Notes under the pieces: model-generated
What the model saw: the letters and a program-made list of their open reading frames with translations, nothing else
Database searches by the model: none
Told to the model about the DNA's origin: nothing
Position numbers and translations under genes: made by a program
Assembly: GCA_045837725.1 (NCBI GenBank)
Contig: JBEWZL010000208.1
Coordinates: 1 to 64,000 of the forward strand
Reading direction: 5' to 3'
Length of the DNA: 64,000 nucleotides
Source of the DNA: Vermamoeba vermiformis
Taxonomy: Eukaryota
Part shown: piece after piece, positions 1 to 44,700 of the stretch
How the letters are laid out: each line of letters opens with the position of its first letter
How positions within the stretch are numbered: the stretch's first letter is position 1

Positions 1-3000
1 ATTGATTCCAAAGACTCGATGATTGATTCAATCTTTGGTCTCGATTGCGGTGACATCTGCCAGCATTGTTTCATGACATCAGCGAGTTGAGGATGACATG
101 ACGATGGAATGACAGGTGTCAAACCTGAGTCTCTGATCAATCGACCGATCTCAATCGGATCTGCTTCGCTGTGAGGCTCTTGTCGTGCAGTGACTTCGTA
201 CATCAGAATACCAAATGACCAAATATCTGTTAAAACGTACTTGTTAATAATGATGCGTCATCGGTCCCGCGTCATTGACGCGTGTCAAAGTGTCAAATCT
301 TACCAGACTTTGTGGAGTACTCTTTGTTCTTCAACGACTCTGGTGACATCCATCTGATTGGTCCAAGTTCTGACTTTGTTGTTCCGTGTTGTTTCTGTTC
401 GTCAACGAGTCGTGACATGCCGAAGTCAGTCAGTTTTGGTTCGTTTCTGTGAAGTAACACGTTCCTTGCTGCAACATCTCTGTGCACGATGTTGTTCGAG
501 TGCAAGTGACTGAGTCCTTTCGCAACGCCAACAAGCCATTGAATTTGATTGCTGAATGATATCTCTGTTGTTTCCTCGTACAACTTGGCATCGAGAGATC
601 CACCTTCACAGAACTCAATGATCAAAATGATGCTGTCTGTCTCTGGATGCACACTGAAACCAAGCAACTGAACGACATTTGGATGAGGTCTGAGTTGCAT
701 CATGAGTTCGAGTTCAGCGATGACACTCGTGTTTGCTTGAGTCATGCTCACTTTGAGTGCAACTGTTGTGTTCTTCCAAGTGCCTTTGAACACTTGACCC
801 GATGCTCCTTGACCGAGCTGCTCTCCGAAAGTGATCTGATCGAACGGAGTGAACCATGCTCCGAACCGTGCCTCGAGACCAACAGTGTTTGATGAGCCTT
901 TCTTCTTGTTGCCACGCCTTCTCTTGAGCAATACGACTATGAGCGCTATGACGCCTCCAACGACAACGACAACGGGTACTACAATTGCTGCTGCAAGCTC
1001 TCCGTCAGTCAGTGCTTGGCTGTTGTTCGGAGTTGTGTCATTGTTGGAAGCATGAGGTGTGAGATCAACGATAACATCAGACTCGAGGATAACGGATGCG
1101 TTGAGGAACAATATCTCGTCTGTGTAATGTCCAAGTTGATAGTGCTTTCCTCCTGCCACCATCACTGTCCTATCGTGCAATCCTGTTGATATTGTTGAAA
1201 CGAAGCCGTATTGGAACGGTGCTGTGTACCAGATTGATTTGTCGTTTAGATTCACCGCGTATGCCAATCCGTCGCTGCCCAATGCCACCAGAGTACTGTC
1301 AACAATTGCAATTGATAACTTGTCTTGAGGCTTTGGCAATGAAAATGTGTCCATGGTTCCAGTATTGATGTCGTACGTGTAAATCTTCAAGAACTGCGAT
1401 ACTGTATTTGTTGAAATATGCATGACATTATCTTTAGTCACAAACTGCCATGTAAACTGTTCGCCTGGTTGTGGAACACGTTCGATCGAAGTTGAATTGA
1501 CTTGAAGGATTGAGGAAACGAGCATTGCAGGTAAATAGCCTACACCATCAACTACGGGCACTGTATTGACGGTGGAGTAGGTGGGCTTTTGGCCGTCCTG
1601 TACTCGAAGCAATTCTCCGCTTGTAGTGTTGTATCGATGCGTGTTCTGTGCCAGCAATGCAATGAGCATGTCGTCAATGACTAACACTGGAGAGAAATTT
1701 ATCCGAACGCTAGCATCCAGTATATCGATGCTTGGCAGCCACGTTTTTGTCACGTAATTGTATACATTGATCTTTTGGTAGCGCAAGGAAGTTTTGAGTT
1801 GAACAATAGCTGAACCATCTTTTGAAACCACGCTCACCGATGAAAAAGGCAGGTTAACTATTTGAGTGAAGTTGAACCACAATACTCTGCTACCCAAACT
1901 GATGACATCTGTTCCAATCGCAAAATCGCCGATGAAATTTACAAGAATTGCTTCTGACATTTGCTGAGTTTCCGCGTTGTAAATCTGCGCGTTGCCGTTG
2001 ACGAATAGAACTAATGTGCTTCGGATCTATTGATACGATTGAGTCCCAATTCACAGATATTGTGTTTGGTATTGTTGAGATTGATCTTGTCTTCGAGTCG
2101 TAGACAAGCAGATCGTCTACTGGATTGTAAAAGATGTACTTGTCGAACCAACGATACGCCTTGATAATTTCTGCAGTTATGACGATTGAACTCCAATAAC
2201 CAGCCTCGTAGATATCAAGCACAAAAATGTCATGGACTATCACTATTTGATTGTCCCAGGACAGTGCTCTCTGAGTTATTCTTGCAGTCCAGTTGGCGAC
2301 ATTGGTGCTCCAATCAAAAATGCTGTATCCGGTTATATTGAACACAAACGCCACGTCACTGAGTACTACTGCCTGCGTTGGACTGTCTAGTAGAACTTCG
2401 TGCCATTCTTCCGTGCCAAACTGATGCACAAAGTACCTGTCAGACGAGTACGCGACAAGTCTACCATGAGCTACAGTGAAGCCAAAATTCGAACTGAAAG
2501 TGCTTGCTGTGGTGACGACGCTGTTGAATACTGTCAAGTTGTGTGTATACGTGTCGTAGATCCAGGCCGCGTACAGTGGCTGAAGTGTCGTTGAGTTGAC
2601 ACCGCCAATGCCAACGATCAAGTTTTCATAAACGAGCTTGATGCCTCCACTGATTCTTTGCATCCATGAGGTTAGAGTTGGTATGTATTCCCATTGCTTC
2701 GAAGAGTTGAAGAAGTCAGCGGAGAACGCTCCGAGAACTGTCACAGTTGAGTTGTGATTCGAGACTTGAATTGGCGTCCGAACTGTTGGTCCACATCCAA
2801 TGTCTTCGTATTGATGTAAAGACGAGTTGTAAAGCATTGTACATGAATTTGGGAATTGACTGCCGGCCACAAAGTAAATATTTTGACCGATGACAGCTGT
2901 TGAGATGAATCCACGAGGTTCTTCCAAGAAAATCGGCTCTTCCCATTCTCCTGATGTTATATTGTATATTTCGACGATATTTGTGGGAATATAATCGTTA

Positions 3001-3161
3001 AGTTCGAAGCCACCAGCAAAATAAAATTGATCTGCAACTTGGATCGCTCCTACTGCGTCACGTGGTGCAGAGAAGCGCTCTTTTTTAATCACAAGAGTGC
3101 TATGGGCAATTGTAAGGCACAGAGTGAATGCCAAGAGCGTTAGAATTATTGGATGTGCCAT
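1..3161 (-). CDS. Receptor-like kinase: signal peptide, Kelch/beta-propeller ectodomain, single TM, tyrosine-kinase-like domain; 3' end runs off the window; +1 frameshift near 2022
   Basis: Signal peptide MAHPIILTLLAFTLCLTIAHS; Kelch-like YFAGG and LEEPRGFI; TM AAAIVVPVVVVVGGVIALIVVLL-KRRR. Kinase motifs GQGASGQV, VALK, HRDVAARN, DFG and GPIRWMSPE. An intron at ~303-228 is followed by DIWSFGILMYEV...CWQMSPQSRP. ORFs 1890-3161 and 293-1960 join via a +1 shift. Confidence 0.85.
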
Positions 3162-41786: not shown

Positions 41787-44700
41787 CTACCACTTCGTGG
41801 GTTTATAGTCCTTAAAGAACATGCCAAAATAAAACTTGCCGTTGTTAACACCATCGATAATCTAAAAGGAAAAGGTTACTAAATAACGCAAATTCGGGTG
41901 TTTCAAAAAACGTACCGGATCTATTACTCTAGCTGCACCGTCAATATTGTCTAACGGTGCTTTCGACATCTGTGAAGCAATATAATGTGGTTGCATGAGC
42001 GATACCCTAAAAAGGAAATAAGAACGTCGGATCCATAAAATTTCGGATCGAGATCATGATCCCGATCCACTTACCATCCAGGATCAACAGCGTTCATATA
42101 AATGCCTTCAGCTGCATATTCATCAGCTGAGGTCCTAGTAAGCATATTCAACGCTGCTTTGGCCATGTTGGTGTGCGGATGCGTTGCGTCTTTTAATTTG
42201 TAAAACTGACCCTCTGGTGAACTGACGTTGATAATGTAGCGAGATTTCGAGGGAGATTTCAACATTAACGGCTTCAACTTGCTGACCAATAAGAACGGTG
42301 CGAGTGCGTTGATCACGTGGACTTCTGCAGCTTCAAGCTCGGAAATTTCAGTTGCCTTCATGACCCATGAAGTCGATGTCCGCTTGTCAATTTGTTGCTT
42401 GTCTTCATCGTACTGACCAACAGGAAATAATTCCTTATTCTTGGAATTATTATCTTCTACCATCATTGTATCTTTATCAGTATTATTATTGTTCGTTGAA
42501 GTTTCATCGACCAAAAAATTCACTGAAGCATCAGGACCTAATTTTTGCATAAGCTTGTATAAGACATTGTAATTATATGATTTTACCTAATAAGGAAGCT
42601 TGAGATTTCTCCGGATCTGCTCGCAAAAATGTTAACATGCGTTGCATCGTAGATTTGTTTTGAAATGACTGTGCTTCCTCTTCTGCACTCGGCTAAAAAC
42701 TCTTTAACGCTTTCATTGCATAAATTTATCGATTCGAGTTCAGTAGGCATCATATGGCTGTAATAATCATACGGCCTAAAAAATGAAAGTTAGATCTGAT
42801 CCGTAGATTTTTATAAACCTGATAATACCGTCTTATAGTCTGTGCGGCATTATTAATCAAAATATCTAAGTGTGAGAACTTATTCTGCAAAAATATGATG
42901 AATTTTGATAACACTGACAGATCCAGAAAGTCGATGCGATACACGAAAAGCCTTGATTTCCATATTTGGTAATCAGGTTCCTATGAGTCAATTGGTCAAT
43001 ATAAAGCATTATCAAAGGTACATTATTGTCATACTTGAGTAAATCTAGTCGCTGCATCTCGCGAAAATCTCGTTGTTGCAATGACCGTGGCACCGTTTCG
43101 CAGCAACATTAGCGCAGTGTAATAGCCTATTTTAACACGTGCTCCTGTCACTAGAGCAATTTTACCGGTCAAATTGACCTTTGGATTTCTCTTCTGCCAA
43201 TTAAATTCGCCGCATTCATTGCACATCTGTCGACAAAAAGTCGTTCAGTGAACGGAAAATAAAATTGATAAAACCGAGGGTTTAACTCACCTTTGGATAG
43301 TGTTGATGACTTCGCATATAAGGACGTTTGCAAACATAACATCGCTCACCACCGTTTGGATTCGCACTAGCGGACGAAGAACTATTGTCCGGTGATGTGT
43401 TGGCGGCATCGTCCGTCTCTTCTATTTTAACATTTTCTTCTCGCTCAACTTCTACTTTCTTAAGGCTGGCCCCTACTAATTGCACAATTGATGCGGGGCT
43501 TAAATTTTGAGTTGAAGTGCTAGAAATGATCTTCGAAGAGGTCGCTTTAAAAGCCTCAACTTTTGCGAGTGGTTTTGCCAGGCTTGTTTCGTCTCGTTTT
43601 AGTTTCTCTAAAATCTTAAGCTTTGCTCTAAGAGCTTCTGATAAATTGGTGCAAAGACTTCTGATCTCCATTTCTTTTGTCTCCAGTGCAATTTTTGAAT
43701 CTTTTTGTTTCGCAGAAATAATTTGCGTAGCATTCTTAATATCACTTGCTTCAACCTCTTTCATAGTCTTAATATAATTATATATGCTTTCGTATTCAGT
43801 CTTTTTGGCCTCTTCTACGAACACTCGTTCAATGTCATTCGAAATTCCTTCGATTGCTTCGGCGACTTGTTGATTGGGCTTGTCAATCTTGCCGACAAAC
43901 TTTTTGATGTCTTTGTACGTTTCAATGTGCTCAAATGCTTGTTCAATCTCTTTAATATCTTTTCTTTCCAAGTACTCGGCGTTGACCGTTTTTTTCAGTT
44001 CGTCAATTTTGTCCAAATCCTTCGTTAAAGTCTCTTTTGAAATTTCTTCCAAATCAATCGATAACTTCATCCACATGCTTTTATCGAATTTAATCATCTC
44101 ATTTGCCTCGTTAAACTCTTTCGAATTCAATAGTAACTGAACATTTTCACCGTAAATGAATCCAGGCTGAAAAAAATTAATCAGTTTAGCGTTAATTTAA
44201 CGACAAAAATATATTACCTTATAAGGAATGTTTTTCATTACGGTATACTGTTTGTACGAATCAAATAAGCTTCTTCAAGTGTTGAATCATCGTCAAATTA
44301 TTCCAGCCTTCGCCGTAGGGCAAAAACACTTGCATATTTGAACTCGAGTAATTCTTTTCGCTCAAATATAGCAATCTTAATAACCCTCCGTTAAGTTCTT
44401 TGTTTTTATCCAGGTGATAAATCAACGGCCTAATTATTTCTGAAATATTTACGGCTCCAATATTGACTCCTATTTTAATAATGTTAGGCTCGTCAAGTAT
44501 TTTATGTTAATTATTACCTGGGACTACGATATTGAATCCTAATTGAGTCATTCTAAATATCTTATCGGGCAATTGTTTGATCATGTAACTGTTTTTCTCC
44601 GACGAAATTTCGGTCTCCTCTTCCGGCAACCGAACGACCACGTGACGCGTCGTTAACGCTCTAATAAACCTCGGAGATGCAAATACGTCTCTACCATCAT

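Follow-up and report, generated by a model that had tools for sequence, protein, structure and literature searches.

Editing of the kinetoplastid type is a mitochondrial process, which is directed by guide RNAs and inserts or deletes U only. For Euplotes, genome-wide +1 ribosomal frameshifting has been described (PMC4759687, PMC5011710, PMC10235951), and the last of these reports places the shifts at internal stop codons. Broken reading frames of a different origin are described as gene-fragmenting insertion or deletion (indel) errors in long-read assemblies and as apparent frameshifts resulting from collapsed haplotypes (PMC12007338, PMC8445201). The current study deals with a gene-dense, 64-kb stretch of eukaryotic nuclear DNA from Vermamoeba vermiformis (GenBank assembly accession number GCA_045837725.1, contig JBEWZL010000208.1, positions 1 to 64,000; G+C content of 34 to 43%), hereafter referred to as the window. 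An earlier note, which was made from its letters, had reported nine +1 frame breaks in protein-coding genes, each repairable by the deletion of one G in a Y-G-A context (Y, pyrimidine) of the coding strand, and had weighed a systematic consensus error, as the null hypothesis, against a site-specific removal of G from nuclear mRNA. Five of the nine breaks, i.e., those of a kinase gene, a CUE gene, a methyltransferase gene, a VPS9 gene, and the site at 44276, are confirmed, while the other four remain candidates only. The surplus bases are probably uncorrected one-base insertion errors in the draft assembly; the null hypothesis is thereby favored, and the site-specific removal of G is unsupported.

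The window resembles cases of draft-assembly indel errors in that conserved genes are split by single-base indels, while the counterparts of these genes in relatives and in other DNA retain an intact frame, and in that the breaks are scattered at about one per few kilobases of coding DNA with no common sequence signal. With Euplotes, it shares the presence of many nuclear genes that need a +1 shift for the full product, but the kinase, CUE, and methyltransferase breaks are located well ahead of the stop codon that terminates the old frame. Unlike fixed shift sites of Euplotes, moreover, the surplus bases at 40723 and 44269 are both missing in X1, a deep sequencing run with the same species label as the window. 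Euplotes-type shifting at stops was rejected, because the homology breaks well before the old-frame stops. The removal of a single nucleotide from an mRNA would restore the frame much as in kinetoplastid editing, but the genes considered here are nuclear and intron-bearing, and the extra letters that could be pinned are A and C.

The placement of the kinase, CUE, and methyltransferase breaks rests on relatives with 44 to 69% protein identity. The kinase break (2018 to 2024, minus strand) lies in the 134-nucleotide (nt) overlap of two minus-strand frames, 3161 to 1893 and 2026 to 296; Pfam matches comprise Kelch repeats in the upstream frame and PK_Tyr_Ser-Thr in the downstream frame, which also contains a membrane span. 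Taken as a whole, the gene (296 to 3161, minus strand) represents a receptor-like kinase, in which an ectodomain of Kelch repeats and a Tyr/Ser-Thr kinase domain are joined by a single membrane span. Relatives were sought among 1.84 billion representative proteins. Ten of them were found with expectation values (E) below 1e-30, and the top relative, P0003 (965 amino acids [aa], 44% identity), has the same domain build. Members of about 1,000 aa are numerous in public data; 200 matches had E values below 1e-10, and many of the weaker ones covered the Kelch part only. In a tblastn comparison with P0003, residues 5 to 374 correspond to 3143 to 2025 and residues 377 to 964 to 2017 to 275 in the +1 frame. 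D374 therefore ends at 2025 and T377 starts at 2017, flanking the stretch CCGAAGC (2024 to 2018), in which 7 nt stand for two residues and one base is in surplus. P0003 and a second relative, P0004, are encoded in a single frame across this site. Downstream of it, 594 aligned positions are stop-free and show 53% identity, and the old frame reaches its stop at 1892 to 1890, well past the break. The +1 break reported at 2022 is therefore real, but its base is fixed only to these 7 nt, any of which, including G 2022, could be the one in surplus.

For the CUE gene, a scan of metagenomes recovered two loci from a related species with 66 to 67% identity. One of them, L001, contains a single 267-aa open reading frame (ORF) that is uninterrupted up to its own stop. 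Projected onto the window, residues 1 to 188 of this ORF correspond to 8935 to 9513 in frame 1 and residues 189 to 266 to 9518 to 9763 in frame 2, and the sole 1-nt gap of the corresponding DNA alignment falls at TT 9527 to 9528. The frame switch thus takes place between 9514 and 9530 (plus strand). The G proposed at 9544 cannot be the surplus base, since the new frame matches L001 from 9518 onward and the break is situated at least 14 nt upstream of that G. The frame past the break shows 77% identity to L001 over 82 positions, and the old-frame stop is located beyond the break at 9568 to 9570. Positions 1 to 6284 of L001 are collinear with 3800 to 9800 of the window, with about 50 to 85% protein identity per exon, and the CUE break is the only frame break of the window across these roughly 6 kb of synteny.

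The methyltransferase gene is broken between 17417 and 17420 (minus strand), where the 4 nt CGAG take the place of one residue, Q, in its relatives. Two related proteins, P0001 and P0002 (63 to 69% identity), run in one frame through ...VDLSEQMVNIAEQKILALNAANASVKVMDGQ and contain MVNIAEQKIL, whereas the window continues from ...MVNIAE to KILESNAANVSTKVMDGQ only by a change to the +1 frame, which is located within 17428 to 17415, where the tblastn pieces overlap. Deletion of G 17419, which is also found in a C-G-A context, yields CAG and hence Q. Positions 2 to 43 of the 97 positions of Pfam Methyltransf_25 match the upstream frame, and the old frame stays open into an intron. Here, too, the +1 break of the earlier note is real, but the G named at 17423 is located 3 nt 5' of the 4-nt stretch.

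The remaining two confirmed breaks were placed by a comparison with sequencing reads, which covered positions 26001 to 46000 and included X1, the water metagenomes X4 and X5, and the RNA run X12, which carries the same species label. Judged by a depth of 229 to 1,137 across 30 of 30 bins and by the lack of intron-like joints, X1 represents genomic DNA. Substitutions relative to the window are found at 223 places in 20 kb, so that X1 is conspecific but of a different genotype. The best word share of any run with the window was 0.56, and the source isolate is not among the runs compared. In the VPS9 gene (plus strand), the extra A at 40723 (GATAT[A]TAC) is missing from X1 at full depth (458.2 of 458.2). 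Its removal opens the frame downstream of the VPS9 domain, giving YIEDITPAEDLESSMTGYFFANL... In the gene upstream of, or fused to, an SDR gene (minus strand), the extra C of the coding strand at 44269 (AAG[C]TT) is missing at full depth as well (557.1 of 557.1), and the frame opened by its removal gives ...MIQHLKKLFDSYKQYTVMKNIPYK. The breaks that had been assigned to 40715 and 44276 are accordingly true +1 breaks, but the distance between the surplus base and the proposed G is 8 and 7 nt, respectively, and Y-G-A is the context of neither base. The earlier note had named the absence of the extra base from accurate genomic reads as a refutation of its proposal. Of its five sites within 26001 to 46000, two are represented among the 12 indels listed of 88, and X1, which is of a genotype other than that of the window, lacks the base at both. 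In noncoding DNA, the window base at 27380 is missing in X1 and X5 at full depth and in X4 partly (2.6 of 6.2).

With respect to the proposed motif, all nine quoted heptamers are present at the positions and on the coding strand given for them, and the observation of one base too many in otherwise intact genes holds for all five confirmed breaks. Y-G-A nevertheless fails as a common signal. In a simulation, a random base was inserted at 4,371 coding positions, and success was defined as the reopening of the frame by the deletion of a G in Y-G-A within the stop-bounded stretch. This was possible for 80% of the insertions with YGA and for 58% with YYGA, so that nine of nine are expected by chance with a P value of 0.13. 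The permitted stretch had a median length of 44 nt in the simulation. The apparent Y-G-A context is explained by the freedom to choose the base to be deleted anywhere within such a stretch; the motif does not rise above the level expected by chance. YGA is TGA at four of the nine sites. By construction, the permitted stretch has its limit at a stop codon of the new frame; this was checked at the 44276 site, where the stretch is bounded by TGA at 44278 to 44276 and TGA at 44264 to 44262. The pinned contexts are unlike each other (T[A]T and G[C]T; the others are CCGAAGC, CGAG, and CATTGG). In the coding DNA of the window that is unbroken and supported by homology (5,091 nt), YGA occurs 178 times, YYGA 92 times, and CCGA 8 times, including three in-frame CCG-A without a shift. 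The claim that the motif follows the strand of the gene is no test, since the choice of the G was itself made on the coding strand; four sites contain CCGA, and all of them are found in minus-strand genes. A shared motif at frame breaks needs to be tested against the freedom of break placement.

Single-base insertions scattered over the deposited sequence would thus represent draft-consensus errors rather than a property of the organism. Possible origins are long reads, low coverage, or the collapse of two haplotypes. Each insertion would split a conserved gene that is otherwise intact between two frames, without any common signal. The relatives are unbroken at all three sites compared, i.e., kinase (P0003 and P0004), CUE (L001), and methyltransferase (P0001 and P0002). 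The genes are not old pseudogenes, because the frames past the breaks are conserved and free of stops over hundreds of codons. Among the 12 indels listed of a total of 88 in the read comparison, 11 are left out and one is put in relative to the window. A consensus error mode, unlike natural indels between strains, would be expected to produce such a one-sided excess of insertions, but the excess is weak evidence. We infer that the extra bases are errors rather than true alleles of the window's isolate. The assembly would then contain roughly one spurious insertion for every few kilobases of coding DNA, and gene models derived from it will come out split or truncated, so that frameshift-aware annotation or polishing is needed.

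Several observations weigh against this conclusion. The listed indels cluster and amount to about eight independent events, which limits the evidential value of the 11:1 bias. At 39436 to 39439 and 42036 to 42065, X4 and/or X5 agree with the window and not with X1, and part of the bias is natural, X1-specific variation. A contig of X4 at 40577 to 41772, which spans 40723 with a depth of 4.57 and whose 17 gap letters are not among the indels listed, does not show the omission of X1, and the extra A may exist in nature; position 44269 is covered by neither X4 nor X5. X1 documents an intact allele within the species and is no proof of an error in the reads behind the window. Homopolymers are the usual place of long-read errors, whereas most of the insertions pinned here are found outside of them.

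An alternative explanation is natural indel polymorphism, with the extra bases as true alleles of the window's strain, some of which would be absorbed by a neighboring 3' splice site (VPS9 and a candidate break in a CAR gene), while others would be recent losses of function. The window is a distinct genotype that differs from X1, X4, and X5 at many places; all three depart from it, e.g., at 28418, 28668, 28911, and 31705 to 31799, and the contig of X4 across 40723 fits this explanation as well. Splice choices made in silico preserve the frame, i.e., AA/GTACGT...TTGAG/G for the window version of VPS9 and CTCAAAG/AA for CAR, a further 3' splice site that would abolish the latter break (slashes denote exon borders). 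For VPS9, the 3' splice sites in question are 40708 and 40718. Yet at the kinase, methyltransferase, and 44269 sites, absorption of the base by an intron is impossible, because homologous residues flank the break within 4 to 7 nt. Within 44 kb, moreover, breaks would affect a minimum of four to five conserved genes, each followed by a long intact and conserved frame, which is unlike drift in one strain. Real alleles are therefore an unlikely explanation, although they are the main rival, and insertion errors in the draft remain the preferred one. Independently of these breaks, X1 lacks 51 nt at 29233 to 29283 (depth of 324), just downstream of the CAR gene, a natural length difference between genotypes. 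For VPS9, the simplest intron (around 40304 to 40343; 40 nt, GTACGT...TTTAG) fails to join the flanking exon frames, whereas a 3' site at 40370 would do so, and X1 lacks one base at 40319, within the stretch from 40303 to 40371.

A far less probable explanation is that all of the frames are in fact unbroken and that the earlier note misplaced introns in an intron-rich genome. The genes of the window carry many short spliceosomal introns, whose length ranges from 47 to 58 nt among those seen, and the ORF pair 46094 to 46567 and 46525 to 47022 illustrates how a shift can be mimicked: it harbors an ordinary 47-nt intron of an MFS transporter gene (46521 to 46567, GTAAGT...CTAAC...TAG). VPS9 and CAR admit the splice solutions given above, and the exon frame of a CWF19L1-like candidate is uncertain. 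The kinase, CUE, methyltransferase, and 44269 breaks, by contrast, are flanked directly by homologous residues or by the sequence of X1 and leave no room for an intron. Misplaced introns are refuted for these four sites and apply at most to CAR, VPS9, and CWF19L1.

Nucleus-encoded skipping of one base without a stop-codon signal would, if true, constitute a novel form of recoding or editing. It would require that the bases are present in the DNA but passed over, either by a one-nucleotide deletion in nuclear mRNA or by programmed +1 ribosomal frameshifting at Y-G-A or CCGA. The direction of the shift, which is +1 at every confirmed break, is in line with this proposal, as are the CCGA of the 7-nt kinase stretch, a word with merely eight occurrences in the unbroken coding DNA mentioned above, the G in C-G-A of the methyltransferase stretch, whose removal restores the Q of both relatives, and the in-frame CCG-A of the CAR candidate. 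The A at 40723 and the C at 44269 are, however, in neither CGA nor YGA and are simply missing from the conspecific X1. The three in-frame CCG-A and the 178 YGA of unbroken genes are read without a shift, the motif is at chance level, and the breaks are away from stop codons. RNA offers no support, given that 55 reads of X12 were placed on 26001 to 46000, 51 of them only partly, with zero coverage at every break site. Skipping in general is hence the most improbable of the explanations considered, and the specific variant that the source isolate truly carries the extra bases in several conserved, expressed nuclear genes and skips one nucleotide in the transcript or during translation, perhaps at C-G-A (kinase, methyltransferase, and CAR), while other strains are in frame, is hardly credible either.

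The four candidates that were not confirmed differ in how closely they could be placed. For the CAR or thioester-reductase gene, frame reading located a +1 break at 29524 to 29530 (minus strand), between ..NPIYP and LLKEYFG.., with CCGA taken as one step. Homologous proteins were sought for the last exon, which yielded zero candidates, and a comparison of a CAR exon with longer proteins gave none with an E value below 1e-5; for the C terminus, the best PDB match had an E value of 0.69, and NCBIfam gave no match. The YPLL of the read-through resembles fungal Lys2, a similarity that was given no evidential weight. A 23-nt GT-AG intron, which the earlier note had implied for this gene, was rejected as being out of line with the 47- to 58-nt introns of the window. 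A better last intron is a 56-nt GC-AG intron (AG/GCAAGT...CTTAG/GT, 29605 to 29550), with which the +1 break remains. Within this last intron, X1, X4, and X5 are all unlike the window at 29554, 29559, and 29589. The SDR candidate (minus strand) was placed only to about 100 nt, at 42590 to 42692, from the frame of the upstream exon versus the frame that is spliced in phase into the last exon; adh_short matches either side, and a splice-site choice that removes the break assigned to 42690 was sought by frame reading, with none found. The weak candidate in the CWF19L1-like gene (11605 to 11748, plus strand) is located before the 5' splice site at 11748, where the frame of the upstream exon is uncertain; CwfJ_C_1 matches the downstream exons only. 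The fourth candidate lies in the decayed stretch of a second CBM20 domain (37560 to 37700, minus strand), for which six-frame reading calls for several changes of frame, with a direction other than +1 in one case. CBM_20 positions 4 to 29 match 37702 to 37833, and the first CBM_20 is located at 38139 to 38639.

Two further observations concern the reads and the composition of the window. Nearly all of the placed X12 reads stack on a 35-nt piece at 27527 to 27560, with unrelated loose ends on either side, and 38 of 38 reads show a C-to-G exchange at 27554; this short piece probably represents a conserved or repetitive element that also occurs at another locus or in another organism. With respect to composition, hexamers centered on GATC are the most overrepresented words of the window, e.g., CGGATC with 40 and GATCCG with 38 occurrences, 4.6 to 4.8 times the expectation from composition. 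A link between these GATC-rich hexamers and the breaks was considered and rejected; the hexamers are evenly spread and are absent from two of the pinned sites. The 78 copies of CGGATC and GATCCG are distributed over the whole window, e.g., at 42028 to 42075. GATC itself occurs 369 times in the whole window, compared to about 224 to 242 expected, and CpG is not depleted, with an observed/expected ratio of 1.22.

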